Positions 2,292-44,585 of a stretch of DNA of 64,000 nucleotides are shown piece after piece. How positions within the stretch are numbered: the first letter of the stretch is position 1; the number at the start of each line of letters is the position of its first letter. Origin of the DNA: an uncultured Myxococcales bacterium (GTDB taxonomy: Bacteria; Myxococcota; UBA727; VGSZ01); the NCBI GenBank assembly GCA_964580865.1, contig CAZONM010000001.1:2825-66824 (forward strand), read 5' to 3'. A program made the position numbers and the translations under genes. The notes under the pieces were generated by a model. That model had not been told where the DNA came from and ran no database searches. It was given only the letters and a program-made list of their open reading frames with translations.

Positions 2292-2360
2292 CGAACGCGG
2301 CCATCGGCCGGCGCGCACGCTCGCGACGGAGCCGAGGTGACCGAGTGGTACTAGCTCCGG

Positions 2361-2384: not shown

Positions 2385-2429
2385 GACCGCACGGATGATC
2401 GCGCGCCGGCGCTGCGCTATGCGCGGCCC

Positions 2430-3389: not shown

Positions 3390-3430
3390 GGATTCTCGAC
3401 GACGCCGCGGACCCGGCGTAAGGTCCCTTC

Positions 3431-4540: not shown

Positions 4541-5443
4541 ATGCGTGGGTCACTCGCCATCGCCGGGGCCGCGTGCTTGTGGGGGCTGTGGAGTCTGTTC
4601 TATCGGAGCGCCGAGCATGCGGCGCGCGCCACCCCCGTCTCGGCCGCGGCCGAGTCGTTCGTCGTCCTCGGCGTCATGCTGGTGGCGCTGTTGCCGCGCG
4701 CCGTCCACGACGCAACGCGGGCGCCGCGCCGATCGCCACGCGCCTGGGCCGCGCTGGCGTTCGCCGGCCTGCTCGACGGCGGGAACTTCCTCTGCTTCCT
4801 CGCAGCCATGCAGAAGACCACCGTGACCATCGCGGTGCTCACCCATTACCTCGCCCCGCTCGTCGTCGCGGCGCTCGCGCCGGTGGTCCTGCGGGAGCGC
4901 TGGCGGCTTGGCACGTTCGGCGCGACCCTGGTGGCCGTGGCGGGCCTCGCGTTGCTGCTGCGCCCGTGGGCGCAGACGCTGTCGGCCGGTGACGTGACCG
5001 GTGCGCTGTTCGGCGCGGCGTCCGCGCTCTGCTACGGCGGCAGCGTGGTGGTGCAGAAGGGTCTGGCTGCGCGCTTCTCTCCCTTCGAGCTCGGTGCGTT
5101 CAGCAAGCCCCCCGCGCTGGCGGTCTCGGCGCTGGCGCTCGGGAGCGCATCCGCGCTCGCGCTCGAGCTCGAGCCGCTCGCGTGGCTGGTCGCGGGCGGG
5201 GTGCTGTGCGGCGCGATCCCCTTGGTGTTGTTCTTCACGGGTCTTCGAAGGACGGCGGCCAGCCGCGCAGCCGTGCTCACGCTCTGCGAGCCCGTGGTCG
5301 CGATGGCGGTCGGCGCGCTCGTGTGGCGCGAGCCGCTCGGGTGGTGGAGCGCGGCCGGGTCCGCGCTCATCCTGGGCGCCGCGGCGTGGATCGCGCGCGG
5401 CGAGGGCGGCGCTCAGCCGACGCCGCGCCGCGCCGTCGGCTGA
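4541..5443 (+). CDS. EamA/DMT-family membrane transporter
   Basis: 300-aa polytopic hydrophobic protein with two EamA-like halves (GLWSLFYR..., conserved G-rich TM segments). Confidence 0.55.
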   Translation: MRGSLAIAGAACLWGLWSLFYRSAEHAARATPVSAAAESFVVLGVMLVALLPRAVHDATRAPRRSPRAWAALAFAGLLDGGNFLCFLAAMQKTTVTIAVLTHYLAPLVVAALAPVVLRERWRLGTFGATLVAVAGLALLLRPWAQTLSAGDVTGALFGAASALCYGGSVVVQKGLAARFSPFELGAFSKPPALAVSALALGSASALALELEPLAWLVAGGVLCGAIPLVLFFTGLRRTAASRAAVLTLCEPVVAMAVGALVWREPLGWWSAAGSALILGAAAWIARGEGGAQPTPRRAVG

Positions 5444-5448
5444 CCCCG

Positions 5449-5955
5449 TCACTTGGTGCGGCGCCGCGAGGGCTTCTTCTCCCGAGCGCATGCCTTGGCC
5501 TGTGCCGCGACCGCGCTCGCGAAGCGCGTGAGGAAACGCTCGAGCTCGTCGATGGCGGTGGGGTCCATGTCGGCGAGCGCGACCTCCATTGCGGCCTCGA
5601 CGGTGCCTGGGGTCTTCACGTCCAAGCGCCGACCGCGCGGCGTGAGCACGATGGCCGTACGCCGCGCGTCGTCGGACGCCACGCGCCGCTCGAGGTAGCC
5701 GAGCTCCTCGAGCCGCTGGATGTGCCCCGTCATCGTGCTCGCGTCGAGGTGCAGGAAGGCGGCCAGCTCTCCCGCGGCGATGTGCGGGCGCCGTCCGATG
5801 ACGCGCAGCACGAGCCGCTGCGGGCCGGTGAGCCCGAGGTGGCTGCCCATCGCGCGCGACAGCTGTTGCATGGCGTGGTCGACGGCCCAGACCTGCCGCA
5901 GCAGCTCGAGCGCGCGCCCCAGGGGCTGCTTCTCGACGATCGGGTCGTCGAACAT
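5449..5955 (-). CDS. MarR-family transcriptional regulator
   Basis: ORF 5449..6084; the likely start is Met44 (ATG at 5955, MFDDPIVEK...); winged HTH LTGPQRLVLRVIGRRPHIAAGELAAFLHLDASTMTGHIQRLEELGYLER. Confidence 0.7.
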   Translation of the reverse strand: MFDDPIVEKQPLGRALELLRQVWAVDHAMQQLSRAMGSHLGLTGPQRLVLRVIGRRPHIAAGELAAFLHLDASTMTGHIQRLEELGYLERRVASDDARRTAIVLTPRGRRLDVKTPGTVEAAMEVALADMDPTAIDELERFLTRFASAVAAQAKACAREKKPSRRRTK

Positions 5956-9927: not shown

Positions 9928-12155
9928 GCGCGCCCGAGCGCGAGCGCGCCGCGCCATGAGCTCCACCGATCGGCCATGCGCTCCTTGCGGCGCAGCTCGG
10001 CGGCGTCGATGATCATGCGGCCGGCCCAGCGATAGACGTTGAACTCGGCGACCATGCGGCGCATCGAGTGCATCCGTTCGCGCTGCTCACTGGCCGGCAT
10101 CTCCAGCGCGTGCGCCAGCGCCTCGGCGCTCTCGCCGATGTCGTAGGGGTTCACCACCAGCGCCTCGGTGAGGTCGCGCGCCGCGCCGGTGAACTGGCTC
10201 AGCACCAGCACGCCGAGCCCGTCTTCTCGCGCGGCGACGAATTCCTTCGCCACCAGGTTCATGCCGTCGTGCAGGCTGCTGACGAAGCACAGGTCGGCTG
10301 CGCGGTAGAAGCGAAACACGGTCTGCGGCTCGTGGTGCGCTTGCAGCAGGCGGATCGGCTGGTAGCCGTCACCGCCGAGCCGCGCGTTGATCGCCTGCAC
10401 CTGGGCCTGCACGCGCTCGTTCAGCTCGCGATAGCGCGGGATCTTGACGCGGCTCGGCGCCGCGAGCTGCACGAAGACGAAGCGGCCGCGCAGCTCCGGG
10501 TGGCGCAGCAACAGCTCCTCGACGGCCGCGAAGCGCTCCTCGACGCCCTTGGTGTAGTCGAGCCGATCGACACCGACGCCGATCAGGGTGTCCGGCGGCA
10601 GGCCCAGCTCCTCGCGCACGCCGCGCCGACACTGCGCCGCGTCCGGGATCTCCCCCAGCCAGTGCACCGGCCACTCGATCGAGATCGGGTAGGGGCGCAC
10701 CAGCGTGCGGCGCTCCCCTTGCACGATGGCGGTGGCCTCGCGATCGATGCGGCTCTCGAGGAAGGCGTCGGCCGAGTCGATGAAGTTCTTGCAGTGCTGC
10801 GCGGTGTGAAAGCCGAGGATGCTCGAGCCGAGCAGGCCGTTCAGCAGCTCTTCGCGCCAGGGGCAGATGCCGATGCGCTCGGCGTTCGGCCAGGGGATGT
10901 GCCAGAAGGTCAGGATGGTCGCGCGCGGCAGGCGCTTTCGGATCATGCGGGGCGCGAGCGCAAAGTGATAGTCCTGCACGAGCACGATGGGCTCGTCGGA
11001 GTCGATCTCGTCACAGACCGCGTCGGCGAAGCGCTGGTTGACCCGCTGGTAGTGGGCCCAGTCCTCGGCCCGGAACTGCGGCCGCTCGTGGGCGATGTGG
11101 CAGAGCGGCCACAGGCCCTCGTTGGAGAAGCCGTAGTAGTAGCCGTTCTCCTCCTCGTCGCTGAGCCAGACGCGGCGCACCAGATACGACTCCTCGCCGG
11201 GCGGCACGCGCACGCGATCGTGCGCGTCGACGGTCTGCCGGTCGGCGCTGCCGCTGCCGTGCGCGACCCATACGCCCGAGCACGCGCGCATCACCGGCTC
11301 GAGCGCGGTGACCAGGCCGCTCGCGGGGTGCTGCACGCGCACGTCCTCGCCGACCTTCTCGTGGATGTAGGGCTCGCGGTTGGCGAGGATGACGACGCGC
11401 TCTCCCTGCAGGTAGCGCTCGAGCGTGTCGTGCAGGCGGGTGGGGCTCCAGGTGCCGGCGCGCGCCTCATGGGCCGCCTCGTCCGCCAGGCGCTCGACGA
11501 GGGCGCGCACATCGCGCACCAGCGGTTGGAACTCGCGGCGGCCCTCGCCGCTCAACGCGCGCAGCATCTCGCGGCGCCACCTGCGCCAGGCGAAGCGGGC
11601 GCCGAGCAGCGTGACGATCGAGGTCAAGAGCGCCAGCACGAAGTACGAGCCGATCAGGAACGCGCGCGTCGTCGCCTCGCGGCGCTGCACGAAGCTCAGG
11701 TCGTGCACCAGCACTACGTCGCCGAGCCGCGCCTCGCCCTCCGTCACGCCGAGCACGCTCAACAGGACCGGCCCGGAGGGCAGCTCGGAGCGCTGGGTCC
11801 AGTGCTGGAGGTCGCCGTCGTCGCGCACGCGCGCCTGCTGGATGGCGCGGCACGAGAACTCCAGGGGGTAGAGCTCCGTGCTGGTCAGCGCCTTGCCGCC
11901 GGGATGGCAAGCGGCGGCGGCCATGATGCGGTCGTCGCGCGTGATGTTGCGCAGCACGGCGCCGAGGCGCTCGACGTCGGCCCCCCAGTGCTGCACCAGG
12001 CTGTCGCGCGCCGACTCGACCGCGAGCCGCGCGCGCAGATCGAGGTCGCGCTCGAACCAGCGCCGGGTGGTGTCGCGCATCACCACGTCGCCGACGACCG
12101 CGAGCCCCGCGAGCATCGCCAGCAGCCCGAGCAGCAGGATCAGCGTCCGCGGCAC
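9924..12155 (-). CDS. otsA: trehalose-6-phosphate synthase OtsA (GT20) fused to an N-terminal ~260-aa two-TM membrane/sensor-like extension
   Basis: The C-terminal ~480 aa carry the GT20 signature ([53 protein letters not shown]). The N-terminus has TM1 [18 protein letters not shown], a ~160-aa loop, then TM2 [23 protein letters not shown] start. Confidence 0.85.
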
Positions 12156-12164
12156 GGTTACGGG

Positions 12165-12187
12165 ATAACATCAAATGCTTTGATACC
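12165..12187. promoter_or_regulatory. 15-bp perfect palindrome ATCAAATGCTTTGAT in the otsA / GH15 divergent promoter region (coordinates approximate +/-2)
   Basis: Read directly in the AT-richer 59-bp intergenic region between otsA (start 12155) and the GH15 gene (start 12215). Confidence 0.45.
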
Positions 12188-12214
12188 CAAGCAAGCCGTG
12201 CTAGCCCGAAGCTC

Positions 12215-13984
12215 ATGCAGCTCGCGGAGCTCGGCCTCATCGGCAATTGCCAGTCGGCCGCGTTGGTCGCGCGCGACGGCGCCATCGTCTGGTCGTGCCT
12301 GCCGCGCTTCGACTCGCCGCCGGTGTTCGCGTCGCTGCTCGACGGGGCGGCGGGCGGGAGCTTCCGGATCGGCGCGCCCGACGGCCGGCCGGGGACGCAG
12401 CGCTACCTGCCGAACACCAACGTGCTCGAGACGCGCTTCGAAGATGCCAGCGGTGCCTTCCGTGTGCTCGACTTCATGCCGCGCTTCGTCCAGCACGGCC
12501 GGACCTTCCGCCCTACCAAGATCGTGCGCATCGTCGAGCCGCTCTTCGGCACGCCACGCATCAACGTCACCTGTGACCCGGTGCTCGGCTGGACGCGCGC
12601 CGCGCCGAGCCGCGAGGCGGGCTCGCACCACCTCGCGTGGCACGGCTTCTCCGCACACCTGCGCCTCACCACCGACGCGGCGCTGTCCTACCTCGACGCG
12701 GGCCCGTTCGCGCTCACCGAGCGCAAGCACTTCGTGCTCTCGTGGGACGCGCCGGTGGAGGAGCCGCTCGAGCCACTCTGTCAGCGCTTCCTCGAGCAGA
12801 CGCAGCGCTACTGGGTCCAATGGGTCAAGCACTGCGACGTGCCGCCCGCCTACCAAGAGCAGGTGATCCGCTCCGCCCTCGCGCTCAAGCTGCACTGCTT
12901 CGAGGACACCGGCGCCATCGTCGCCGCCGTCACCACGTCGCTACCGGAGGCACCCGGTGCCGCACGCAACTGGGACTACCGCTACTGCTGGCTGCGCGAC
13001 GCCTTCTACACGCTGGGCGCGTTCCGCCTGCTCGGCCACTTCGAGGAGCGCGAGCAGTTCCTCGACTTCCTGCTCAACGTGGCCTCGTCCACCCCCGACC
13101 TCGACCTCGCCCCGCTCTACCGCGTCGACGGCAAGAGCGACCTGACGGAGCAGACGCTCGAAGCGTGGCCGGGCTACCAAGGCAACCGGCCGGTGCGCGT
13201 CGGCAACGGCGCGGCGCTGCACCGGCAGCACGACGTGTTCGGCGAGATGGTGCTCGCGTTCACGCCGCTCTTCCTCGACGCGCGCTTTCGCGACCACGTC
13301 ACGCCGCCGGTGCTCGACCTGGTGGCGCGCCTGACCGACAAGGCCATCGCCGTCGCCGGTCAACCGGACGCCGGCATCTGGGAGGTGCGCAACACCTGGC
13401 GGCCGCAGACCTTCAGCACGCTGATGTGCTGGGCCGCGGCCGATCGCATGAGCCGCATCGCGGCGGCCCACCGCCCTGGTGCCGCCGCGGGCTACGCCGC
13501 CGCCGCGGCGAGCCTGCGCACGCAGCTGCTCACCCAGGCCGTGCACCCGACGCGCGGCTGCCTGGTGGCCGACCACGGCGGCACCGAGGTGGACGCCGCC
13601 TTGCTGCAGGCCATCACCCTCAACTTCCTCGCACCTGCCGATCCCATCGCGGGCCGCACCATCGACGCCGTGCGCGCCGACCTCGAGCACCACGGCTGGC
13701 TCAAGCGCTACCGCGTCGACGACGGCCTCGGCACGCCCAGCGTGGCGTTCACGCTGTGCACTTTCTGGCTGGTGGAGGCGCTCGCGCGCGTCGGGCGGCT
13801 CGACGAGGCGCGGGCGATCATGGCGCGCGTGCCGGAGATCCACTCGCCGCTCGGCCTGCTCTCGGAAGACCTCGACCCGCAAAGCGGAGTCATGTGGGGC
13901 AACTTCCCGCAGGCCTACTCGCACGTCGGGCTGATCCACGCCGCGTTCGCCGCCTCGCCGCCGTGGTCGGAGCTGGGCGCCTGA
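12215..13984 (+). CDS. glycoside hydrolase family 15 protein (glucoamylase/trehalase-like)
   Basis: 589 aa; the GH15 (alpha/alpha)6 core WDYRYCWLRDAFYT and ELGLIGNCQSAAL N-terminal motif resemble GH15-type trehalases, and the gene is divergent from otsAB. Confidence 0.8.
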   Translation: MQLAELGLIGNCQSAALVARDGAIVWSCLPRFDSPPVFASLLDGAAGGSFRIGAPDGRPGTQRYLPNTNVLETRFEDASGAFRVLDFMPRFVQHGRTFRPTKIVRIVEPLFGTPRINVTCDPVLGWTRAAPSREAGSHHLAWHGFSAHLRLTTDAALSYLDAGPFALTERKHFVLSWDAPVEEPLEPLCQRFLEQTQRYWVQWVKHCDVPPAYQEQVIRSALALKLHCFEDTGAIVAAVTTSLPEAPGAARNWDYRYCWLRDAFYTLGAFRLLGHFEEREQFLDFLLNVASSTPDLDLAPLYRVDGKSDLTEQTLEAWPGYQGNRPVRVGNGAALHRQHDVFGEMVLAFTPLFLDARFRDHVTPPVLDLVARLTDKAIAVAGQPDAGIWEVRNTWRPQTFSTLMCWAAADRMSRIAAAHRPGAAAGYAAAAASLRTQLLTQAVHPTRGCLVADHGGTEVDAALLQAITLNFLAPADPIAGRTIDAVRADLEHHGWLKRYRVDDGLGTPSVAFTLCTFWLVEALARVGRLDEARAIMARVPEIHSPLGLLSEDLDPQSGVMWGNFPQAYSHVGLIHAAFAASPPWSELGA

Positions 13985-14923: not shown

Positions 14924-15207
14924 GCGCGCAGCCTACCCTTCCTGCCGGCAAGGGGCAGGGCGTTCGCGCGCAAGCTGCTCGGGCCCCCCATGTCTTCCCC
15001 GCGGGCGTCGGTCGCGCTCAGCCTCCTGGCGTCACCGATCGCACCGGTGCTCGCGCTCGCCCTACGGCGCCGCCCGTTCCTCGCCGCCGGCCTCGACACC
15101 TTCGTCCTCGTCTCCGTCAGCGGCGTGGCGGCGGAGGGCGCGAGCCCCAGCACCGGGGCGCGCACGTTGGAGGGTTTGCGCCGCCCTCCAACATTGCCAC
15201 AGTGCCG

Positions 15208-15533
15208 GCGTGTCCACCGTCGTCGTCTCCCGCGCCAAGCTCTGGCTCTACCGCGCCGTCGCGGTCCACCTCGCCGTCACCGCGCTCACGGGCCTCGCGC
15301 TCTACGCGCGTCCCCTCGACGATCGCCCCGGCTTGTACGGCGAGGTCGTCAAAGAGTGGCTCGTGATGATCCACAACGGCGAGTGGATCGGCCATCTGCT
15401 CTTCGGCAGGCGCTGGCTCACCGGCGTCGCGATCGGCGCCGCGCTCGCCTGGCCGCTGCTCCGGCACGCGCGCCGCGCGCTGGCCCCCGCCGCTAACCGA
15501 TCCGACGTCCTCGACGACGCACGCCCCGGCTGA
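15208..15533 (+). CDS. small His-containing membrane protein (hypothetical); possibly the 3' part of a frameshifted gene that begins at 14977
   Basis: GTG-start ORF with hydrophobic helices (VAVHLAVTALTGLALYA; WLTGVAIGAALAWPLL); an upstream ORF in another frame (14977.., MSSPRASVALSLLASPIAPVLALAL...) is separated from it by the hairpin at 15167..15191. Confidence 0.3.
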
Positions 15534-15597
15534 CCGGTTGGCCCTCCTCGCCCCGCACGACCTTGACAGCGCGCGTTCGGTGCCGTACAACGACTAC

Positions 15598-15616
15598 GAT
15601 AACGATTATCACAATC
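15598..15616. promoter_or_regulatory. Fur-box-like operator GATAACGATTATCACAATC (15/19 match to GATAATGATAATCATTATC) 30 nt upstream of the 15645 gene
   Basis: Seen directly in an AT-rich patch within otherwise >70% GC DNA; core inverted repeat GATAA-CGA-TTATC. Confidence 0.45.
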
Positions 15617-15644
15617 ACAACACGATCGCCACCACGGGACCCGC

Positions 15645-16457
15645 ATGCGCAGCCGCCGTCGCCACCTCCTCGCCGCCGCCCTCGTCGTCGCCACGGCGCT
15701 CCCGCTGGCGCAGGCCGCCCCCGCCACCGCCAGCGGCCGGCGCTTCACGTACACCTACGAGTCGCTGGTGCTCGCGCCCGGTCAGCTCGAGCTCGAGCCC
15801 TGGACCACCTTCCGCGGCGGGCGCGAGGAGCTGTACCTGCGCTTCGACGAGCGCATCGAGCTCGAGGTGGGCGTGATCGAGAACGTGCAGATGGCGTGGT
15901 ACCTGAACGCCAAGGCCGTCACCGAGGCCGCCGGGCCCGCGCTCAAGAAGGAGCTCGAGTTCACCGGGGTGTCGAACGAGTGGAAGTGGAAGATCCTCGA
16001 CCCCGTGGCCGACCCCGTGGGCCTGGCGCTCTACGGCGAGTGGACGGCGGCGCCGTCCGAGGCCGAGCTCGAGGCCAAGGTCATCGTCGACAAGCGCTTC
16101 GGCGACCTCATCGCCGCCGTGAACGTGGTGGGCGAGGTGGAGTGGGAGCTCGAGGAGCCCGGCGAGGTGGAGCAGGAGCTGGTGCTCGAGGTCGACGCCG
16201 GCCTCGCGTACCTGATCACGCCCGCCTTGGGGCTCGGCCTCGAGCTCGTCGACCACACCGACTTCGGCGGCGAGGGCTTCGAGCACTCCGCCGTCTTCGC
16301 CGGGCCCACCATCAGCTACGCGGGCGAGCGCTTCTGGGCCGCCGTCAGCGTGCTGCCCCAGGTGGTCGACCTCGGTCGCCTCGGCACCGCCGAGCTGCAA
16401 GACCTCCATCACCACGAGCGCATCAGCGCGCGTGTGCTGCTCGGCTTCGAGCTGTAA
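15645..16457 (+). CDS. secreted protein, acidic and beta-rich (possible small outer-membrane protein), hypothetical
   Basis: Signal peptide MRSRRRHLLAAALVVATALPLAQAAPA; alternating hydrophobic beta-strand pattern; C-terminus ...RVLLGFEL; preceded by the Fur-like box. Confidence 0.6.
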   Translation: MRSRRRHLLAAALVVATALPLAQAAPATASGRRFTYTYESLVLAPGQLELEPWTTFRGGREELYLRFDERIELEVGVIENVQMAWYLNAKAVTEAAGPALKKELEFTGVSNEWKWKILDPVADPVGLALYGEWTAAPSEAELEAKVIVDKRFGDLIAAVNVVGEVEWELEEPGEVEQELVLEVDAGLAYLITPALGLGLELVDHTDFGGEGFEHSAVFAGPTISYAGERFWAAVSVLPQVVDLGRLGTAELQDLHHHERISARVLLGFEL

Positions 16458-16475: not shown

Positions 16476-16844
16476 GTGGCAGCACCGTCACCGTCGACCC
16501 GAGCAGGCGCCATCGCCCTGGCGGCGCTGGCGCTCGTCGTGGCGACGGCGTGCGCCACGCTGGCCGAGCCCACGCCCGTGGACGCGGCGTGGGCCGCGAC
16601 GCGCTGGCCCGACGCCACCGAGGATGAGCTCCGGCGTGGGCGCGCGCTCTACGTCAAGCGCTGCGCGGGCTGTCACGCGCTGCGCCTGCCCGAGCGCTAC
16701 CCGTCGAGCACCTGGGCCGAGCACGTCGATGAGATGGCCAAGCGCGCCAAGCTGCCCGGCGACGAGCGCGAGGTGATGCTGCGCTACCTCGTGACCATGA
16801 GCCGGCCCGATCGGCCCACGGAGGTCACCGCCTCGTCGCGCTGA
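16476..16844 (+). CDS. mono-haem c-type cytochrome lipoprotein
   Basis: Lipobox VATAC; single haem-binding CAGCH motif; 122 aa. Confidence 0.7.
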   Translation: MAAPSPSTRAGAIALAALALVVATACATLAEPTPVDAAWAATRWPDATEDELRRGRALYVKRCAGCHALRLPERYPSSTWAEHVDEMAKRAKLPGDEREVMLRYLVTMSRPDRPTEVTASSR

Positions 16845-16982
16845 CCGGTGCGGCGCCTTGCCACAGCGGCAGATCACCGCGGCGTTCGGCCGCGCCGGCG
16901 TCGACGACGCCTGCGCGTCCGAACGCGGCGCCGGAGGCCTCCGTTGCCGGTCGGCAAAACGCCGCGCCTGGCGCCGTGCGGT

Positions 16983-17000
16983 TGTAAGTAGCGTGTAAGT
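16983..17000. promoter_or_regulatory. direct repeat TGTAAGT-N4-TGTAAGT in an AT-richer patch ~90 nt upstream of the dihaem cytochrome/nar operon
   Basis: Read directly (gtTGTAAGTagcgTGTAAGTcgcc); it lies in the 240-bp intergenic region. Confidence 0.35.
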
Positions 17001-17086
17001 CGCCGGTGTTACCCACCGACCGTCAAGCCAGCGCTCCATCGCGTCCACCACGGGCGCGAGCAGGCGGCGCCGGAGGTCTGGTGGGT

Positions 17087-17965: not shown

Positions 17966-18021
17966 CCGTCCCATCGCGTTCGCTTCGATTTCCCAGGAAC
18001 GAGAGCTGAAGAGGTAGTGCC

Positions 18022-21000
18022 ATGAGCTGGATTCAGGACATCATCTCGCCCGAGACGCGCCAGTGGGAGGAGTTCTACCGGAACCGCTTCCAGCACGACC
18101 GCATCGTGCGCAGCACCCACGGCGTGAACTGCACGGGCGGTTGCTCGTGGCAGATCCACGTCAAGGACGGCATCGTCGTGTGGGAGACGCAGCAGCTCGA
18201 CTACCCGCTGCTCGAGGACTCGCTGCCGCCCTACGAGCCCCGCGGCTGCCAGCGCGGCATCTCGTACTCCTGGTACTTGTACAGCCCGCTGCGCATCAAG
18301 TACCCGCTGATCCGCGGCGCGCTCCTCGACGCGTTCGAGAAGGAGAAGGCGGCCGCCAAGGGTGACGCCGTCGTCGCGTGGGAGAACCTGCAGAAGGATC
18401 CGAAGAAGCGCCAGAGCTACCAGACGGCGCGCGGCAAGGGCGGCTTCCGCCGCACCACGTGGGACACCGTGCTCGAGCTCATGGGCGCGGCCAACATCTA
18501 CACCGCCAAGAAGTACGGCCCCGATCGCGTGTTCGGCTTCTCGCCCATCCCGGCGATGTCGATGCTCTCCTACGCGGCGGGCGCGCGCTTCCTGCAGCTG
18601 TTCGGCGGCGTCAACCTGAGCTTCTACGACTGGTACTGCGACCTGCCCACGGCGTTCCCCGAGATCTGGGGCGAGCAGACCGACGTGTGCGAGAGCGCCG
18701 ACTGGTACAACTCGAAGCTCATCGCCGACATGGGCGCGTGCCTCAACATGACGCGCACGCCCGACTGCCACTTCTTCGCCGAGGCGCGCCACAACGGCAC
18801 CAAGGCGGTGGTGTTCTCGCCGGACTTCAGCCAGGTCTGCAAGTACGCCGATCAGTGGGTGCCCCTGCACGCCGGCAGCGACGCGGCGTTCTGGATGGCC
18901 ACCACGCACGTGGTGCTCAAGGAGTTCCACCACGACAAGGCCACGCCGTACTTCATCGACTACTGCAAGAAGTACACGGACAGCCCGTACCTGGTGCACC
19001 TCGACAAGGAGGGCGATCACTACAAGCCCGGTCGCCTGGTGCGCGCCAACGAGATCGCCAAGTGGAAGGATCTCGACAACGGCGACTGGAAGTTCCTGAA
19101 CATCGACGGCAAGTCGAACGAGCTCGTCATCCCCAAGGGCAGCATGGGCCACCGCTGGGACAAGACCCAGGGCAACTGGAACATGCTCCACGAGAACGCG
19201 GCCGACAACAAGCCGTACGACCCGATGCTGACGCTGCTCGGCAACCGCGACGACACGCTCGCCTGCGAGTTCACCGAGTTCGGCCTCGACAAGACCGTGC
19301 TGCGCAACGTGCCCGTGCGCATGCTCGAGACCGCCAACGGCAAGGTGCCGGTCACCACGGTGTACGACCTGATCATGGGTCAGTACGGCGTGGGCCGCGG
19401 GCTGCCGGGTGACTACCCGAAGGACTACACCGACAAGAACCAGGCCTACACGCCGGCGTGGCAGGAGATCTTCACCGGCATCGACTCGAAGACGGTGCTG
19501 CAGTTCGCGCGCGAGTGGGCCAACACCGCCGAGACCACGCAAGGCAAGTGCATGGTCATCGTCGGCGCCGGCATCAACCACTGGTACCACGCGAACCTGA
19601 TGTACCGCTCGGCGGCCATGGCGCTGATGCTGTGCGGCTGCGTGGGTCGCAATGGTGGCGGCCTCAACCACTACGTCGGGCAAGAGAAGCTGGCGCCCGT
19701 CGACTCGTGGGCGTCCATCGCGTTCGCCAAGGACTGGCAGGGCCCGAGCCGCCTGCAGCAGGCGCCCCTGTGGCACTACATCAACACCTGCCAGTACCGC
19801 TACGACGGGCAGTTCTCCCGCTACAACGCCGTGCCGAAGAACGAGCGCACGTCGATGCACACGGCGGACACGATCTTCCAGTCGGTGCGCAACGGCTGGA
19901 TGCCCTTCTACCCGCAGTTCGAGGCTAGCCCCATCGAGCTGTGCAAGGACGCGGAGAAGGCCGGCGCCAAGAGCGACGCCGACATCGTCAACCACGTGGT
20001 GGGCAAGCTGAAGGACAAGTCGCTCGGCTACTCGGTCGGCGACCCCGACAGCGAGAAGAACTTCCCGCGCGTTTGGTACATCTGGCGCGGCAACGCGATC
20101 ATGGGCTCCATGAAGGGCCACGAGTACGCGCTCAAGCACTACTTGGGCACGCACTCGAACGCCATCGGCAAGGACAGCGACGAGCACCCGAAGGAAGTGA
20201 AGTGGCACGACGTCGCGCCCACCGGCAAGATGGACCTGATCGTCGACCTGAACTTCCGCATGGATTCGTCGGCGCTCTACTCCGACATCGTGCTGCCGGC
20301 GGCCTCTTGGTACGAGAAGGCCGACCTGAACTCGACCGACCTGCACTCGTTCATCCACCCGCTCTCGGCCGCCGTCGCCCCCGTGTGGGAGTCGAAGTCC
20401 GACTGGGAGATCTTCAAGGCGCTCGCCAAGGCGACCTCCGACGCCGCCAAGGTGCACCTGCCCGGCGTGCAGAAGGACATCGTGGCCACGCCGCTGTCCC
20501 ACGACAGCGCCGATGAGATCACGCAGCCGCGCATCAAGGATTGGTATCGCGGCGAGTGCGAGCCCGTGCCCGGCAAGTCGATGCACAAGCTCGGCGTGGT
20601 CGAGCGCGACTACACGAAGCTGTACGAGAAGTACGTCACGTACGGCGAGGGCGTCCGCAAGAGCGGCCTCGGCGCGCACGGCACGCACTACCGGTGCGAG
20701 GAGGAGTACGACCAGCTCCTCTCGTCGAACCACTTCCCGAAGGAGACGTTCAACGGCAAGGTCTATCCGTCGCTCAAGGAGGACAACCAGGCGGCCAACG
20801 TGCTCCTGCACATGTCCACCCTGACCAACGGCGCCTGCACCGTGAAGGCGTACCAGGAGATGGAGAAGAAGACCGGCCTGAAGCTGGTCGACCTCGCCGC
20901 CGGCTCCGAGGACGTGCGCATCACCTACGAGGACCTGCAGGCGCAGCCGCGGCGCTACAACACGGCGCCGGCGTGGTCGGGCCTGATGAACAACGGCCGC

Positions 21001-21639
21001 GCCTACGCGCCCTACACGTACAACTACGACAAGATGGTGCCGTGGCGCACGCTGACGGGCCGCCAGCACTTCTACCTCGACCAGGATCTGTACCTGGCCT
21101 ACGGCGAGCACCTGCCCACCTACAAGCCCTCGCCCAAGCCCGAGGCTTACGGTGACCTGAAGGAGACGTTGAAGGGTGGCCAGGCGCTGGCGCTCAACTG
21201 CCTGACGCCGCACGGCAAGTGGCACATCCACTCGACGTACATGGAGAACCACCGGATGCTCACCCTGTCGCGCGGCTGCGAGCCGTGCTGGATGAGCGAG
21301 GTGGACGCGCAGCAGCTCGGTATCCAGGACAACGACTGGGTCGAGGTCTACAACGACCACGGCGTGTACTGCACGCGCGCGTCGGTGAGCTCGCGTATCC
21401 CGCGCGGCGTGTGCATCGTGTACCACGTGCCCGAGCGCACCGTGGGCATCCCGAAGTCGCAGGTGCGCGGCAATCGGCGCGCCGGCGGTCACAACAGCTT
21501 TACGCGTATCCACCTCAAGCCCAACTACTTGAGCGGCGGCTACGGGCAGTTCAGCTACCACTTCAACTACTGGGGTCCCATTGCGCCGCAGCGGGACACG
21601 CACGTGGTCGTGAAGAAAATGACCAAGGTCGTCTTCTGA
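18022..21639 (+). CDS. narG: respiratory nitrate reductase alpha subunit NarG
   Basis: 1205 aa; N-terminal [11 protein letters not shown] Fe-S motif and molybdopterin-oxidoreductase domains along the full length. Confidence 0.97.
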
Positions 21640-21652
21640 GGAGAGGTGAGAG

Positions 21653-23203
21653 ATGGATATCAGAGCGCAAACGGCGGTGGTCTTTCACCTCGACAAGTGC
21701 ATCGGCTGCCACACCTGTTCGATCGCGTGCAAGAACATCTGGACCGATCGTAAGGGTGCCGAGTACCAGTGGTGGAACAACGTCGAGACCAAGCCCGGCA
21801 CGGGCTATCCCGGCAAGTGGGAAGACCAGAGCATCTACAACGGCGGTTGGGTCAAGGACGCGAACGGTCGCATCCAGCTCAAGGGCGCCGGCAAGAAGAA
21901 GGGCCTGCTCAACATCTTCCACAACCCGTCGTTGCCGACGGTGGAGGACTACTACGAGCCCTTCACGTACAACTACCTGAACCTGATCGAGGCGCCCCCG
22001 GGCAACGATCAGCCCACGGCGCGCCCGGTCTCGCTCATCACCGGTGAGCCCATCGACGTGAAGATGGGTCCCAACTGGGACGACGACCTGTCGGGCACGC
22101 CCGACTATGCGCGGAACGACCCGAACCTCGCGGCGCTCACGCCCGCCGAGCGCCAGGCGATGTTCCAGCTCGAGCGCATGGCGTTCTTCTACCTGCCGCG
22201 CATCTGCAACCACTGCCTGAACCCGGGCTGCGTGGCGTCGTGCCCGTCGGGCGCCATCTACAAGCGCGGTGAGGACGGCGTCGTCCTCATCAACCAGAAG
22301 GTGTGCCGCGCCTGGCGCATGTGCGTCACCGCGTGCCCCTACAAGAAGAGCTACTACAACTGGCACACCGGCAAGTCCGAGAAGTGCATCCTGTGCTACC
22401 CGCGCATGGAGGCGGGCTACGCGCCCGCGTGCATGCACTCGTGCGTCGGTCGCATCCGCTACATCGGCGTCATCCTGTACGACGCCGACAAGATCGAGGC
22501 GGCGGCGTCGGCGGAGCCGAAGGACCTGGTGGCCCGTCAGCTCGACCTGTTGATGGACCCGTTCGACGACAAGGTGATCGCCGCGGCCAAGGCCAACGGC
22601 ATCGCCGACTCGACCATCAAGGCCGCGCAGAACTCGCCCACCTTCAAGTTCATCAAGCAGTGGGGCATGGCGCTGCCGCTGCACCCCGAGTTCCGCACGC
22701 TGCCGATGCTGTGGTACGTGCCCCCGCTCCTCCCCGTCATGGCGTCGGTCACCCAGACCGACGGCGCGCAGAAGGAGAAGCTCAACCCCATCGCCAAGAC
22801 CTGGACCGACAACTGGCTCTACGACACCTCCACCGAGGAGCTGTGGGGCACGGTCGAGCAGGCGCGCTTCCCGCTCAAGTACCTCGCGAGCCTGTTCGCG
22901 GCGGGCGAGACCGGCGAGGTCTCGATGCGCCTGAAGAAGCTGATGGCGGTGCGCATCTACCGTCGTTGGAAGACCGTGGGCGACATCCCCGAGGCGCGCA
23001 TGACCAAGGCGCTCAAGGAGACGGGCCTCACGCAGGAGTCGGCCGAGGCGATCTTCTATTTGACCGCGCTCGCCAAGTTCAACGATCGCTTCGTCATCCC
23101 GCCCGCGCACCGCGAGCAGGCGATGGAGATGCTCGAGTTCACCGGCGACGTGAAGGGCTCCACGGGCTTCGGCTTCCGTGAGAAGCCCGAGCGAGGCATG
23201 TGA
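21653..23203 (+). CDS. narH: respiratory nitrate reductase beta subunit NarH
   Basis: 516 aa; four Cys clusters (CIGCHTCSIACK, CNHCLNPGCVASCP, CRAWRMCVTACP, CILCYPR...). Confidence 0.97.
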   Translation: MDIRAQTAVVFHLDKCIGCHTCSIACKNIWTDRKGAEYQWWNNVETKPGTGYPGKWEDQSIYNGGWVKDANGRIQLKGAGKKKGLLNIFHNPSLPTVEDYYEPFTYNYLNLIEAPPGNDQPTARPVSLITGEPIDVKMGPNWDDDLSGTPDYARNDPNLAALTPAERQAMFQLERMAFFYLPRICNHCLNPGCVASCPSGAIYKRGEDGVVLINQKVCRAWRMCVTACPYKKSYYNWHTGKSEKCILCYPRMEAGYAPACMHSCVGRIRYIGVILYDADKIEAAASAEPKDLVARQLDLLMDPFDDKVIAAAKANGIADSTIKAAQNSPTFKFIKQWGMALPLHPEFRTLPMLWYVPPLLPVMASVTQTDGAQKEKLNPIAKTWTDNWLYDTSTEELWGTVEQARFPLKYLASLFAAGETGEVSMRLKKLMAVRIYRRWKTVGDIPEARMTKALKETGLTQESAEAIFYLTALAKFNDRFVIPPAHREQAMEMLEFTGDVKGSTGFGFREKPERGM

Positions 23204-23898
23204 TGCTGCGCGTATCCCTCTACGACGCGCTCGCCGCGGTCTTCGCCCACCCAGGTCCGAGCTACCTCTCGGACCTGGCGCGGGCCATCACCGCGCTCGA
23301 GCACGAGTACCCCAAGGCCGCGGAGCAGCTGCGCGAGCTCGAGCGCCTCTTGCCCAAGGGCAACGCGCTCGCGCTCGAGGAGCTGTTCACCCGCACGTTC
23401 GACGTGCAGCCCATCACGTCGCTCGACGTGGGCTACACGCTGTTCGGTGAGGACTACAAGCGCGGCGCGCTGCTCGCAAACCTGAGCCGCGAGCACACGG
23501 TCGCGAAGAACGACTGCGGCGCCGAGCTGGCCGACAACCTCGGCAACGTGCTGCGCCTCTTGCCCCGCTGGACCGACGCCGCCGTGCGCGACGAGTTCGT
23601 GCACGTGCTGCTCGGCCGAGCGGTGGCGGAGATGATCCGCGAGTTCGAGCCCGCGCGACTCGCGAAGAAGGAAGAGATCTACAAGAAGCACCACAAGACC
23701 ATCATCGAGACCTTCGAGGGTGAGACGCGCGTGGCGTACCGCCACGCGCTCGGTGCGCTGTTCACGGTGCTCAAGGCCGACTTCGGCGTGAAGGTCGGGC
23801 TGCCCGTCGCCAACGAGTCGACGTTCGTCGCCGCCGTGGGCGCCGAGATGGGCATCGAGGGCGACGAGAGCTGCAACTCCTCCTGTGGCGTGAAGTGA
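23200..23898 (+). CDS. narJ: nitrate reductase molybdenum cofactor assembly chaperone NarJ
   Basis: 232 aa; start overlaps the narH stop (ATGA); NarJ/TorD family in the canonical position between narH and narI. Confidence 0.85.
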   Translation: MMLRVSLYDALAAVFAHPGPSYLSDLARAITALEHEYPKAAEQLRELERLLPKGNALALEELFTRTFDVQPITSLDVGYTLFGEDYKRGALLANLSREHTVAKNDCGAELADNLGNVLRLLPRWTDAAVRDEFVHVLLGRAVAEMIREFEPARLAKKEEIYKKHHKTIIETFEGETRVAYRHALGALFTVLKADFGVKVGLPVANESTFVAAVGAEMGIEGDESCNSSCGVK

Positions 23899-23905
23899 GA
23901 GGTAC

Positions 23906-24637
23906 GTGATGGAACTGTCGAACGTCTTTCTGTTCGTGGGCTTGCCCTACGCCGCGATGGTGATCTTCCTCCTGGGGACCATCCAGCGCTACCGCAACAA
24001 GGGCTTCAAGGTGTCGTCGTTGTCCTCGCAGTTCCTCGAGGGCAGGGCGCTGTTCTGGGGCATCGTGCCCTTCCACTTCGGCATCCTGGTGCTGTTCCTC
24101 GGCCACCTGTCGGCGTTCCTGCTGCCTGGTCCCACGCTCATGTGGAACGCCGACCCGATGCGGCTCATCACGCTCGAGATCACGGCCTTCGCCTTCGGCC
24201 TGTCCACGCTCGTGGGCTTGGCAGCGCTGTTCGTGCGCCGCCTCACCAACGTGCGCATCAAGATGGTGACGACGAAGATGGACATCTTCCTCGAGCTCCT
24301 GCTCTTGGTGCAGGTGGTGTTCGGCCTGTGGGTGGCCGTGGGCTATCGCTGGGGCTCGTCGTGGTTCGCCGCCGACCTGACTCCCTACCTGTGGTCGCTG
24401 TTCAAGGCCGACCCAAACATCCTGGCCGTGAGCGCCATGCCGTGGCCCATCAAGGTCCACATCGTGGGCGCGTGGCTCATCATCGGCATCTTCCCCTACA
24501 CCCGCCTCGTGCACTTCCTGGTGGCGCCGCTGCACTACATCACCCGTCCCTACCAGCGCGTGATGTGGAACTGGGATCGCAAGGCCATCCGCGACCCGCG
24601 CACGCCGTGGAGCGCGATGCGCCCGAAGAACAACTGA
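23906..24637 (+). CDS. narI: respiratory nitrate reductase gamma subunit NarI (dihaem cytochrome b)
   Basis: 243 aa; 5 TM helices with conserved His residues (HFGILVLFLGH, ...HIVGAWL...HFL). Confidence 0.9.
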   Translation: MMELSNVFLFVGLPYAAMVIFLLGTIQRYRNKGFKVSSLSSQFLEGRALFWGIVPFHFGILVLFLGHLSAFLLPGPTLMWNADPMRLITLEITAFAFGLSTLVGLAALFVRRLTNVRIKMVTTKMDIFLELLLLVQVVFGLWVAVGYRWGSSWFAADLTPYLWSLFKADPNILAVSAMPWPIKVHIVGAWLIIGIFPYTRLVHFLVAPLHYITRPYQRVMWNWDRKAIRDPRTPWSAMRPKNN

Positions 24638-24656
24638 CGACCAAGGCCATGCCGAC

Positions 24657-25343
24657 GTGAGCGATCTGATCCAGATTGGCGATAAGGGCGGTGATCCCGT
24701 CCGTCGGCAAGAAGAGCGGGGCTGCGACCAGCCCGACGGTCTCAGCCCCATGGACCCGCCCGACGCGTACGCGCCGCCGGGCGAGGTCCCGGGCGACGAG
24801 GCCGACCTCGCGAAGCGCCATGGCTACCTGCGCGCGCTCACGGGTGACCACGCGCGACTGATGGAGGCCATGGCGCTCGTCGAGGAGAAGCTCGCCAACG
24901 TGAGGGAGACGGGCTTCACGCAGGCCGCCGACGTGGCGGTGATGCGCTTTCTGGAGACCTTCGACCGCGAGTTCATCGCGCACAGCCGCGAGGAAGAGGC
25001 GCGGCTGTTCCCGCTCTTGCACGAGCGCCTCATCGCCGCCGGTGAGCACAGCAAGAGCCGCGTGATCACCACGGCCATCGACGTGATGAAGGACGAGCAC
25101 CTGAAGGCGGTGCAGCTCGCCGCCGTGGTGCTCAACCTGGTGCGCGTGGCGTCGGTGCTGCCCGACGAGAAGTCGGCGCAGCTCGTGGTCAACGCCGCGC
25201 TCGGCGAGCTCACGAAGCTCGTCGAGCTCTTGCGCCTGCACATCTTCCGCGAGGACGGCATCGTCTTTGCTCGTGCGCAGGGCCTGCTCTCCACCGCCGA
25301 GCTCGACGCCATGGGCGCCGCCGGCAGGAGACGCGACGGGTAG
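24657..25343 (+). CDS. hemerythrin-like (HHE cation-binding) domain protein
   Basis: 228 aa; H-x-x-x-E / HxE spacing (AHSREEEARLFPLLHERL, MKDEHL); embedded between narI and narK. Confidence 0.6.
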   Translation: MSDLIQIGDKGGDPVRRQEERGCDQPDGLSPMDPPDAYAPPGEVPGDEADLAKRHGYLRALTGDHARLMEAMALVEEKLANVRETGFTQAADVAVMRFLETFDREFIAHSREEEARLFPLLHERLIAAGEHSKSRVITTAIDVMKDEHLKAVQLAAVVLNLVRVASVLPDEKSAQLVVNAALGELTKLVELLRLHIFREDGIVFARAQGLLSTAELDAMGAAGRRRDG

Positions 25344-25358
25344 AAGAGGTCCTGCGTC

Positions 25359-26876
25359 ATGGAAGAAGTCGCGAGCGCCAAGTCACACAAGGCCCTGGTG
25401 CTAAACACCCTCGCGTTCACCGCCTGCTTCGCGGCGTGGATGCTGAACGGTGTGTTGGTCACGTTCCTCACCAACAACCAGGTGTACCCGTGGGGGCCCG
25501 TCGAGATCGGCTGGCTCATGGGCATCCCCGTGTTGACGGGCTCGCTCTTCCGCCTGCCTGCCGGGCTCCTCACCGACAAGTACGGCGGCAAGCCCGTGTT
25601 CACGGCCATGCTGATGTTCTGCGCGGTGCCCATGTACCTGCTGAGCACCGTCGACTCCTTCCTCGGCTTCGCTCTGTGTAGCTTCGGCTTCGGGCTCACG
25701 GGTGTGGGCTTCTCTATCGGCATCGCGTTCACCTCGGTGTGGTACCCGAAGAAGAACCAAGGCACGGCGCTGGGCATCTTTGGCGCCGGCAACGCCGGCG
25801 CGTCGCTGTCGACGCTGTTCGCGCCCACGCTGCTCAACCGCTTCACCAACGGCGGCGTCGACCTCGAGGGCTGGCGCATGTTGCCGAAGGTGTACGCGGC
25901 GATGCTGCTCGGCATCGGCGTGTTGTTCCTGATCTTCTCCACCAACAAGAAGCCGACCGCGACGAAGCTGACCCTCAAGCAGCAGCTCGAGCCCCTCAAG
26001 TCGGTGCGCGTGTGGCGCTTCGGCCTCTACTACTTCCTGGTGTTCGGGTGCTTCGTCGCGTTCTCGCAGTGGCTGGTGCCGTACTTCGTCAACGCCTACT
26101 ACATGCCGCTCGTCACCGCCGGCATCCTGGCCTCACTCTTCAGCTTCCCCTCGGGCGTGATCCGCGCGCTCGGCGGTTGGCTGTCGGACAAGTTCGGCGC
26201 GCGCCGCGTGATGTTCTGGGTGTTCGCCACCTCGTGCATCATCAGCGCCGCCGTCATCGTGCCGAAGATGGAGATCTACTCGCCCGGCCGCGGCGTCATG
26301 GCCATGCGCCCGGGCGTGGTGAGCGAGGTGAACTACGGCAGCATCACCGTGGGTCCCGACACCTACAAGCTCCAGCCCAAGCCCACCGAGCTCAAGACCT
26401 ACGACGAGACCATGGCCATCTTCCCCGGCAAGGAGACGTGGCAGGAGCCCGCCGTGGTGGTGGGGCAGAAGGTGCAGAAGCGCGAGCTCTTGGCCAAGGG
26501 CGTCACGCGCATCTTCTTTCAAGCCAACGTGTGGATCTACGCGTTCCTGGTCATGGTCATCGGCATCATCTGGGGCATCGGCAAGGCCGGCGTCTACAAG
26601 TACATCCCCGACTACTTCCCGCAGCAGGTGGGCGTGGTCGGCGGCATGGTCGGCGTCATCGGCGGCCTCGGGGGCTTCGTGTGCCCCATCCTGTTCGGCT
26701 ACCTGCTCGACTGGACCGGCCTGTGGACGAGCTGCTGGATGCTGATGCTGGCGCTGTCGATCGCATGCCTGTGGTGGATGCTGCGCGTGGTGCGCATCAT
26801 CGAGAAGAACGCCGCGCCCCAAGTGGCGCAGAGCTTCGAGCAGACGCCCGAGAAGCCAAGCAGCAACGGTTCGTGA
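25359..26876 (+). CDS. narK: nitrate/nitrite transporter NarK (MFS, NNP family), NarK1-type
   Basis: 505 aa; 12-TM MFS with NNP signature (GFGLTGVGFSIGIAFTSVWYP, GIFGAGNAGAS). Confidence 0.9.
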   Translation: MEEVASAKSHKALVLNTLAFTACFAAWMLNGVLVTFLTNNQVYPWGPVEIGWLMGIPVLTGSLFRLPAGLLTDKYGGKPVFTAMLMFCAVPMYLLSTVDSFLGFALCSFGFGLTGVGFSIGIAFTSVWYPKKNQGTALGIFGAGNAGASLSTLFAPTLLNRFTNGGVDLEGWRMLPKVYAAMLLGIGVLFLIFSTNKKPTATKLTLKQQLEPLKSVRVWRFGLYYFLVFGCFVAFSQWLVPYFVNAYYMPLVTAGILASLFSFPSGVIRALGGWLSDKFGARRVMFWVFATSCIISAAVIVPKMEIYSPGRGVMAMRPGVVSEVNYGSITVGPDTYKLQPKPTELKTYDETMAIFPGKETWQEPAVVVGQKVQKRELLAKGVTRIFFQANVWIYAFLVMVIGIIWGIGKAGVYKYIPDYFPQQVGVVGGMVGVIGGLGGFVCPILFGYLLDWTGLWTSCWMLMLALSIACLWWMLRVVRIIEKNAAPQVAQSFEQTPEKPSSNGS

Positions 26877-26898
26877 CGCGACGAGCGCGTGTGGAGGC

Positions 26899-28341
26899 AT
26901 GATGACGACGAGCACGGCAGCGGAAGGCGCGCGGGTGGGTGGGCTTGCGGGGTGGCTGCCGGCGTGGGCGCCCGAGGACGCGCAGTTCTGGGCCGCCGAG
27001 GGCAAGAGGCGCGCGTGGCTCACGCTCACGCTCACCACGCTCGGGCTCATCGCGTCGTTCGCCACCTGGTTCGTCTTCAGCGCGGTGGCCGTGCGCCTGC
27101 CGAACATCGGCTTCACGTTCGACACCATGCAGCTGTTCTGGTTGAGCGCCATGCCCGGGCTCTCGGGCGGCTCGCTGCGGCTCATCCACAGCTTCCTCAC
27201 GCCCATCTACGGCACGCGCCTCACGGTGTCGGTGGCGACCTTCCTCAAGATCTTCCCCATGCTCTGGCTCGGCGTCGCGGTGCAGAACCCCGACACGCCC
27301 TACTCGAGCTTCCTCATCATCGCGTTCCTGTGCGGCATGGGCGGCGGCGACTTCTCGTCGTTCATGCCCTCGACGTCGATGTTCTTTCCGAAGCGCCTGC
27401 AGGGCACGGCGCTCGGCCTGCAGGCCGGCATTGGCAACCTCGGCGTGTCGATCGTGCAGTTCGTGACGCCGTGGATCATCGGCTTCCCGCTGTTGTCGGC
27501 CTTCGGCGGGCCGCAGCCCTTCGTCAAGGGCGAGGTGCACAAGGACATCTGGCTGCAGAACGCGGCCTTCTGGTACGTGCCCTACCTCGCGCTCGCGGGC
27601 GTGCTGTGCTTCATGTTCTTGCGCTCGGTGCCGGGCAAGAAGCCGGCGGTGGGCGACATGTTGAAGAGCATGGTGAGCGACCGCCACGTGTGGTTCTGCG
27701 TCATCACCTACGTCATGACCTTCGGCACCTTCTCGGGGCTCGCGGCCGCCTTCCCGCTCATGATCAAGTCGATCTACGGCGGCTTCCCCGACGCGCCCGA
27801 CCCGCTCAAGTACGCCTTCCTCGGCCCGCTGGTCGGCTCCGCCGTGCGCTTCATCGGCGGGCCGCTGGCCGACAAGTTCGGCGGCAGCATCTGGACCCAG
27901 ATCTCCGGCGCCGGCCTCATCCTCGGCAGCCTGGCGCTCATCTTCGGCGGCTACCTGACGCCCACGGGCCTCGAGCAATTCTCGGGCTTCGTGTGGATCA
28001 TGCTCTTCCTCTTCCTCTCGGCCGGCATCGGCAACTTCGCCACCTTCCGCCAGTACCCCATCGTCTTCGCGTACGACGCCAGGAAGGGTGCGCAGGTGCT
28101 CGGCTGGACGGGCGCCTGGGCCGCCTACGGCCCCCTGCTGTTCTCGTCGCTGATCGGTGCGAGCATCTCGACGTTCGGCTCGGCCAAGGCCTTCTTCTGG
28201 GGCGCTTGCGCCTTCTTCGTCGTCGGCAGCGCCATCAACTGGTGGTGCTACACGCGGCCGGGCGGCGAGCGCTGCGACTACGGCTCATGGAAGGGCACGT
28301 GGTGGGACAAGGCCAAGGACACCTGGCCCACCAAGAGCTGA
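26899..28341 (+). CDS. narK: second nitrate/nitrite transporter, NarK2-type antiporter (MFS, NNP family)
   Basis: 480 aa; MFS NNP signature (GMGGGDFSSFMPSTSMFFPKRLQGTALGLQAGIGNLG); tandem narK1-narK2 layout. Confidence 0.9.
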   Translation: MMTTSTAAEGARVGGLAGWLPAWAPEDAQFWAAEGKRRAWLTLTLTTLGLIASFATWFVFSAVAVRLPNIGFTFDTMQLFWLSAMPGLSGGSLRLIHSFLTPIYGTRLTVSVATFLKIFPMLWLGVAVQNPDTPYSSFLIIAFLCGMGGGDFSSFMPSTSMFFPKRLQGTALGLQAGIGNLGVSIVQFVTPWIIGFPLLSAFGGPQPFVKGEVHKDIWLQNAAFWYVPYLALAGVLCFMFLRSVPGKKPAVGDMLKSMVSDRHVWFCVITYVMTFGTFSGLAAAFPLMIKSIYGGFPDAPDPLKYAFLGPLVGSAVRFIGGPLADKFGGSIWTQISGAGLILGSLALIFGGYLTPTGLEQFSGFVWIMLFLFLSAGIGNFATFRQYPIVFAYDARKGAQVLGWTGAWAAYGPLLFSSLIGASISTFGSAKAFFWGACAFFVVGSAINWWCYTRPGGERCDYGSWKGTWWDKAKDTWPTKS

Positions 28342-44571: not shown

Positions 44572-44585
44572 GCGGAGTGCCACTC

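Follow-up and report, generated by a model that had tools for sequence, protein, structure and literature searches.

The Fur box is textbook biology. For the locus considered here, the closest described form is the FUR box of delta-proteobacteria, tTGAAAATCATTTTCAt, which precedes fur, feoAB, candidate porins and a cytochrome c family gene, frequently in the form of tandem sites 6 nt apart, and differs from the Zur and PerR boxes of the same bacteria (Rodionov et al., 2004; PMC545781). Among the myxobacteria, FurA (MXAN_3702) has been described as the master regulator of iron in Myxococcus xanthus, in a paper that contains no box consensus and nothing on a DUF6662 orthologue (PMC11388931).

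A site of this type is found in the window, by which is meant the whole 64-kb stretch of DNA that was analysed, ahead of a gene for a DUF6662 protein and a gene for a small cytochrome c. Comparison with related loci makes it highly probable that an iron-sensing Fur repressor uses this site as its operator, on the promoter of the operon that the two genes are predicted to form. The box itself is ordinary in type, and what appears to be new is its target, namely DUF6662 as a consistent member of the Fur regulon in several phyla.

The predicted box and its promoter

The predicted elements upstream of the DUF6662 gene, which starts with ATG at 15645, are as follows.

15563..15568, plus strand: -35 hexamer TTGACA of a predicted sigma-70-type promoter; TTGAC is invariant in 8 of 8 related loci
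15586..15591, plus strand: -10 hexamer TACAAC, after a 17-nt spacer; its position and T-A-n-A pattern are conserved in the alignment
15597..15611, no strand assigned: predicted Fur box core, the 7-1-7 inverted repeat CGATAAC-G-ATTATCA
15598..15616, no strand assigned: the 19-mer GATAACGATTATCACAATC, in the register of the classical Fur 19-mer
15603..15617, no strand assigned: weaker second box, overlapping the first and shifted by +6 nt, in the hexamer array GATAAC/GATTAT/CACAAT/CACAAC

An earlier note on this DNA had reported a match to the classical Fur box at 15 of 19 positions, and this match is real: GATAACGATTATCACAATC agrees with the E. coli Fur 19-mer GATAATGATAATCATTATC at 15/19 positions on the plus strand and at 16/19 on the minus strand, and the best match elsewhere in the 64-kb window, with all positions scored, stays below 13/19. 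When up to three mismatches are allowed, there is one match to the Fur 19-mer in 64 kb, against none in 100 dinucleotide-preserving shuffles. The GATAA-N3-TTATC core that had been claimed as well is present as a perfect palindrome (15598..15610) and is the sole copy in the window even at one mismatch, with 0.04 copies expected. In the other common register, 15597..15611 agrees with the B. subtilis-type 7-1-7 Fur consensus TGATAATnATTATCA at 13 of 15 positions, N being counted, and a register scan reveals a 6-nt periodicity (GACTAC/GATAAC/GATTAT/CACAAT/CACAAC).

The surroundings of the box are indeed AT-rich as claimed, with 60% GC in the 100 nt 15550..15649 versus 70-80% around them, and about 38% GC, counted from the sequence, in the 40 nt 15586..15625; the background of more than 70% GC with which this had been compared is slightly too high, the whole window having 69.5% GC. 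The claimed closeness of about 30 nt to the gene start also holds, since the box ends 28 nt before ATG 15645, ahead of which lies a purine-rich GGGA.

The promoter was assigned from conservation, its -10 hexamer lacking the usual final T, and on this basis TTGACA-17-TACAAC is the likely promoter of the DUF6662 gene. The promoter scan tool listed no promoter at the site because it demands T at position 6 of the hexamer; the relatives' counterpart of TACAAC reads TAAAAG or TAAACG. The box starts 5 nt after TACAAC, and the distance of 34 nt from the -35 hexamer to the box core is shared with one class of loci (L001, L002, L012, L034, L046, L047 and L052). Depending on the architecture class, the distance from the -35 hexamer to the box downstream of it is about 31-35 nt, as in the window's class, or about 20 nt, or the hexamer lies inside the box, and in every class the box would overlap the predicted -35 hexamer, -10 hexamer or start site.

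Because it lies directly downstream of the -10 hexamer, the box would cover the predicted transcription start, spanning roughly -1 to +14 relative to that start, with the overlapping hexamers further downstream; such an overlap of box and promoter is the classical layout for repression by promoter occlusion. From the position of the box over the predicted start, we infer that the genes are repressed when iron is plentiful. Under these conditions, Fur dimers loaded with Fe2+ would bind the 7-1-7 box at 15597..15611, would probably spread onto the overlapping hexamer array as far as about 15621, and would block the initiation of transcription by RNA polymerase, and once iron becomes scarce Fur would leave the DNA and the operon would be transcribed. 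Repression under plentiful iron is the logic of iron acquisition and not that of iron-consuming enzymes, so the earlier argument from the iron demand of the neighbouring genes to Fur control runs in the wrong direction.

Conservation upstream of DUF6662 genes

A protein search yielded 327 DUF6662 homologues, mostly from metagenome-assembled genomes of Myxococcota, for which 80 genomic loci were retrieved, with 8 more obtained via exact-protein look-ups. Most of these loci come from metagenome-assembled genomes, and their start codons were set heuristically; in five of them (L004, L010, L023, L059 and L074) the start was mis-set, and their boxes were at first counted as background and later reassigned.

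For a footprint alignment, the upstream regions of 8 loci were used whose DUF6662 protein is 66-79% identical to that of the window. The only invariant elements are TTGAC, the A-rich -10 region and GA.AAC.A.TATCA, and the spacer, the 5' UTR and the DNA further upstream diverge. The upstream neighbours also vary, with an insertion sequence in L001 and a DUF1428 gene in L082. On the upstream side of the latter locus there is, in addition, an apparent tRNA gene, judged by eye.

Across the larger set, 46/81 loci match the core TGAnAATnATTnTCA at 10 or more of its 12 specified positions in the roughly 200 nt ahead of the DUF6662 gene. The remaining locus DNA, about 906 kb, contains 25 positions with such a match, several of which are also upstream of DUF6662 once start codons are corrected. 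Among the high-GC loci, 41 of 64 have this match in the 200 nt upstream of DUF6662. Upstream regions of other genes from these loci served as control, and it is present in none of the 293 (Fisher p = 1e-37), which include 68 that are equally AT-rich. The site in the window, which matches at 10 of the 12 positions and has C where the core has T at positions 1 and 7, is of middling quality within the family.

A position weight matrix was then derived from 42 orthologous sites with the window left out; these sites had been chosen by consensus match, a circularity that is mitigated by the 0/293 control and by the exclusion of the window. Scanned with this matrix, the window has its top score at 15593..15615 (20.6 bits), versus a mean of -44.5 and a standard deviation of 11.8 over all positions. 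The second-best score, 11.8 bits, belongs to the same site shifted by 6 nt (15599..15621), and the next independent match reaches 8.0 bits. The consensus of the orthologous sites reads aaatTGAaAATsATTtTCAattt. The earlier proposal of a Fur-family operator on the gene of a secreted or outer-membrane protein is thus supported by footprint, motif enrichment and gene context alike.

Two distant loci have a further Fur-type box immediately behind DUF6662, some 813 nt away from the gene start (L037, position 4355; L050, position 2500); in L050, this box is located just ahead of the downstream cytochrome c gene. This second box may serve internal regulation.

Target genes and the extent of the regulated unit

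The two genes that would be controlled from the box are the following.

15645..16457, plus strand: target gene 1, DUF6662 (PF20367), 270 aa, with a predicted signal peptide and a modelled 12-stranded outer-membrane beta-barrel
16476..16844, plus strand: target gene 2, small cytochrome c of 122 aa with signal peptide and a single CxxCH, separated from gene 1 by 18 nt

The DUF6662 match of the first product scores 35.3 bits against a Pfam cut-off of 27, and its homologues are precomputed as PF20367. With its predicted signal peptide and a modelled barrel of 12 antiparallel strands that resembles solved 12-stranded outer-membrane channels (COG4313-like fold), this protein fits well with the secreted or outer-membrane-like product that had been claimed. 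Its invariant residues include many that are spaced two apart along strands (E49/E51, R70/E72/E74, E112/K114 and E141/E143/K145), and in the model we take these invariant Glu, Arg and Lys residues to face the lumen of the barrel.

The second product has its CxxCH at residue 63, and most members of its family carry a lipobox-type signal peptide. Its Pfam matches, to DHC and Cytochrome_CBB3, are below cut-off. Assignment as a dihaem protein (PF09626, DHC) was considered and rejected, as the score is 21.7 bits versus a cut-off of 22.2 and as the window protein, like each of the 36 family members listed, has one CxxCH. In a family profile search, the gene was found paired with DUF6662 in 72/80 loci, and because of this pairing and because it abuts the barrel gene, the two are considered to be in an operon. 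Opposite-strand open reading frames over the region are devoid of the GC3 signature of coding sequence.

The gene order in the window (small membrane protein, DUF6662, cytochrome c, cytochrome c, narGHJI) is also that of L001/L081. The earlier description, in which two c-type cytochromes are followed by the nar operon, is correct in this order. Two details of these genes have to be amended, in that the first cytochrome has one CxxCH and not two, and the second starts at ATG 17087 and not at GTG 17006. The GTG was rejected in favour of the ATG, which gives a protein of 292 aa as in L081, because the 81 nt upstream of the ATG are part of a conserved non-coding block. This block, a leader of 242 nt at 16845..17086, is 84% identical between the window and L001, the one pair compared, and contains long stretches without any difference, for example TGTAAG...CGTGTAAGTCGCCGGTGTTACCCAC; its predicted fold has -142 kcal/mol (z = -3.2 versus shuffled sequence). 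A search of Rfam with the region and with the whole window returned nothing at gathering score, and the weak matches (E 0.4-0.8) were treated as chance. To judge from its conservation and predicted fold, the leader is probably a promoter or a structured leader of the cytochrome c-narGHJI unit.

The extent of the regulated unit can be considered on this basis. The first downstream cytochrome c, the monohaem protein, is probably under the same Fur control as DUF6662, whereas transcription of the second cytochrome c and narGHJI probably starts for the most part in the leader ahead of them, separately from the Fur box. Alternatively, the Fur-controlled promoter might also drive the second cytochrome c and narGHJI in one long transcript, so that nitrate respiration would be iron-regulated, which we regard as unlikely. 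Such a transcript would be compatible with the location of all these genes on the same strand, with a terminator scan that detected no intrinsic terminator on the plus strand between 14900 and 18100, with the retention of the gene order through narGHJI in L001/L081, and with a downstream cytochrome c of 288-292 aa in the short relatives L086 and L087. However, the conserved and strongly folding segment 16845..17086 fits a separate promoter or leader, and the DUF6662-cytochrome pair occurs with a Fur box in dozens of loci without nar, linkage to nar being found, among the loci examined, in the window, L001/L081 and L002 only. Moreover, the usual logic of Fur regulons is iron-sparing under starvation, and de-repression of an iron-rich enzyme under these very conditions would oppose it. 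The suggestion that the box perhaps controls the downstream haem proteins is therefore best divided: it probably applies to the first cytochrome c, which lies 18 nt after DUF6662 and accompanies it in 72/80 loci, and probably does not apply to the second one and narGHJI, which have a 242-nt leader of their own.

Some features of this cluster and of the rest of the window may be added. In L082 and L085, DUF6662-cytochrome c-cytochrome c is followed by a convergent moaA-type gene (Radical_SAM plus Mob_synth_C; 11837..12853 and 2473..3492, respectively), with no adjoining nar genes, and in L088 an unannotated cut gene (2110..3042) occupies the same place; this hints at a link of the clade's cluster to molybdoenzyme metabolism. 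The small membrane-protein gene upstream of the box, which ends at 15533 (15207..15533), encodes a predicted membrane protein of 108 aa with no Pfam or NCBIfam match. With its counterpart in L081, which occupies the same position, it shares 79% identity, and L085 has there a 108-aa gene without a Pfam match. The protein seems to be a companion of the cluster that is specific to this clade, and its gene precedes the Fur box. The 9-mer TTGCCACAG is present just upstream of this gene (15196..15204) and again at the beginning of the nar leader (16860..16868), the leader copy being conserved in L001, and could be a shared regulatory word or due to chance.

Further away, the region of about 42300..50600 contains no open reading frames with the high-GC3 signature of the genome and no rRNA or other Rfam family, and GC falls to 60% at 44-48 kb versus about 70% elsewhere; this region may be foreign or mobile DNA. 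The nar cluster itself (18000..28000, narG to MFS transporters) has 64-67% GC versus 71-74% in its flanks, with a GC3 of 94-97%. Since the drop is in codon positions 1 and 2, it reflects protein composition and is not clear evidence of recent transfer.

Regulator, possible role and known systems

The neighbours of DUF6662 were identified by clustering the genes, scanning representatives against Pfam and searching all loci with family profiles. The families relevant to the identity of the regulator are the following.

10/80 loci: Fur-family gene, often directly upstream
13/80 loci: FeoB
5/80 loci: DtxR/MntR-type repressor
7/80 loci: FeS_assembly_P
3/80 loci: ABM monooxygenase
3/80 loci: TonB-dependent receptor

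At least one of these is present in 21/80 loci. Where fur heads an operon with DUF6662 (L074, L036 and L025), the box is at the start of fur, with a matrix score of 28.1 bits in L074, and in L034 it is located between divergent feoB and DUF6662 genes. Of the models compared, those for Fur give the adjacent Fur-family proteins their highest scores, followed by PerR and then by Zur, although all scores remain below the NCBIfam equivalog cut-offs. A profile search of the 64-kb window detected no Fur-family gene.

A different arrangement is found in the Krumholzibacteria-type loci L021, L022 and L056, where a dtxR-family gene lies directly upstream of DUF6662 and the Fur box is absent. The three loci have in common the palindrome TGTTAG-N6-CTAACT, 35-65 nt before the start, at the following positions.

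L021, about 5930..5950: TGTTAG-N6-CTAACT
L022, about 5380..5400: TGTTAG-N6-CTAACT
L056, about 1215..1235: TGTTAG-N6-CTAACT

With a dtxR-type gene and a palindrome upstream, the gene pair would be metal-regulated in these loci too, and the replacement of the Fur box by the TGTTAG palindrome looks like a swap of metal regulators that keeps the pair under metal control.

The derived consensus equals tTGAAAATCATTTTCAt and not the Zur or PerR boxes of the same study (PMC545781). This identity, the iron-linked neighbours and the apparent regulator swap together favour iron, sensed via Fur, over zinc or peroxide as the signal. Of the three signals that the earlier note had left side by side, iron is accordingly the one that the motif and the fur, feoB and dtxR-type neighbours support, and zinc and peroxide are reduced to a minor rival.

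That rival, in which the box is bound by another Fur-family paralogue (Zur, PerR or a manganese or nickel regulator) and the operon answers the corresponding signal instead of iron, is in our judgement quite improbable. The 7-1-7 plan is common to Fur-family boxes, no adjacent Fur-family protein reaches an equivalog cut-off, and many orthologous sites read TGAAAATsATTTTCA, which presumably resembles the Zur boxes of actinobacteria. Nevertheless, scans with the B. subtilis Zur and PerR consensus sequences, TCGTAATnATTACGA and TTATAATnATTATAA, found no site in the window that reaches 12/15, Fur models fit the adjacent regulators better than Zur or PerR models do, and the conserved neighbours comprise feoB, fur, dtxR-type genes and genes of Fe-S assembly, with no match to zinc-uptake or peroxide-defence families among the conserved neighbour families that were scanned. 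In delta-proteobacteria, furthermore, the same motif precedes fur and feoAB and the Zur and PerR boxes differ from it (PMC545781).

Far less likely still is an origin of the site by chance, as an AT-rich palindrome or as a mere part of the promoter or 5' UTR without a dedicated regulator. Intergenic DNA is relatively AT-rich in GC-rich genomes, the Fur consensus is AT-rich as well, and the core matches at only 10/12 positions, but at most 0.04 occurrences are expected per window, the equally AT-rich control regions contain no comparable match (0/68), and the palindrome is invariant in 8 loci, unlike its flanks. The proximity of nar in this clade could also suggest the operator of a nitrate-, NO- or oxygen-responsive nar regulator of the NsrR, NarL or FNR type, but this is very hard to reconcile with the retention of the box upstream of DUF6662 in loci without any nar genes, with its Fur 7-1-7 architecture and with the lack, on inspection, of TTGAT-N4-ATCAA at the site.

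With Fur as the preferred regulator, a role of the gene pair may be considered. A full-text literature search found no paper on DUF6662. Because a barrel with charged residues is combined with a periplasmic monohaem cytochrome partner, a Fur box and a frequent feoB neighbour, our guess is that the pair carries out an outer-membrane step of iron acquisition, for example as a cation channel that feeds FeoB together with a redox partner. A possible mechanism would be that a glutamate-lined cation channel, together with its redox partner, delivers Fe2+ to FeoB or maintains it for FeoB. More broadly, and with somewhat more doubt than confidence, DUF6662 and the monohaem cytochrome c might constitute a hitherto unrecognised outer-membrane module for iron acquisition that is under a Fur or DtxR-type repressor and that in the window's clade has become attached to a nitrate reductase cluster. 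The pair is spread over Myxococcota, Bacteroidota, Ignavibacteriota, Krumholzibacteriota, Acidobacteriota and Elusimicrobiota.

To our knowledge, the route of Fe2+ across the outer membrane to FeoB is not well defined in most bacteria, and the DUF6662-cytochrome pair provides a concrete candidate for this passage that can be tested in culturable myxobacteria. The DUF6662 gene, with its small cytochrome c partner, is among the genes most consistently associated with a Fur box across several poorly studied phyla, so the site would mark a widespread gene pair as iron-regulated. It would also set the iron control of a two-gene operon apart from the regulation of the adjacent nitrate reductase genes.

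The proposed system shares features with several known ones and differs from each of them. As to the barrel, sequence identity to the COG4313 channel (PDB 4rl8) and to other 12-stranded barrels (FapF, autotransporter beta-domains and KdgM/NanC) is 9-11%, and DUF6662 is set apart from COG4313-like barrels by a Pfam result of DUF6662 alone and by its charged invariant residues two apart. Repression of the DtxR/IdeR/MntR type, as would operate in L021, L022 and L056, places the same gene pair under metal control; however, it involves another regulator family and another operator and is absent from the window.

The delta-proteobacterial FUR box likewise has the 7-1-7 palindrome, including the TGA...TCA arms and the C/G centre, the tendency to a tandem 6-nt shift and the closeness to the start of the regulated gene, and its targets are alike, namely fur, feoAB, candidate outer-membrane porins and a cytochrome c family gene (Rodionov et al., 2004; PMC545781). 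There are also differences, as that study covered Geobacter, Desulfuromonas and Desulfovibrio but not Myxococcota, and its porin candidates were phosphate-selective porin-like and OprB-like proteins and not DUF6662 (PMC545781). In comparison with that box, the window's clade has the variant TGAkAACsAyTATCA, in which core position 7 is C. With the E. coli GATAATGATAATCATTATC and B. subtilis TGATAATnATTATCA boxes, the site shares 15-16/19 and 13/15 positions, respectively, as well as the hexamer periodicity, and it would likewise overlap the promoter. Whereas core positions 4 and 12 are mostly A/T in the orthologous sites (TGAAAAT...ATTTTCA) and not T/A as in the classical boxes, the window's own site has kept the classical T and A at these two positions.
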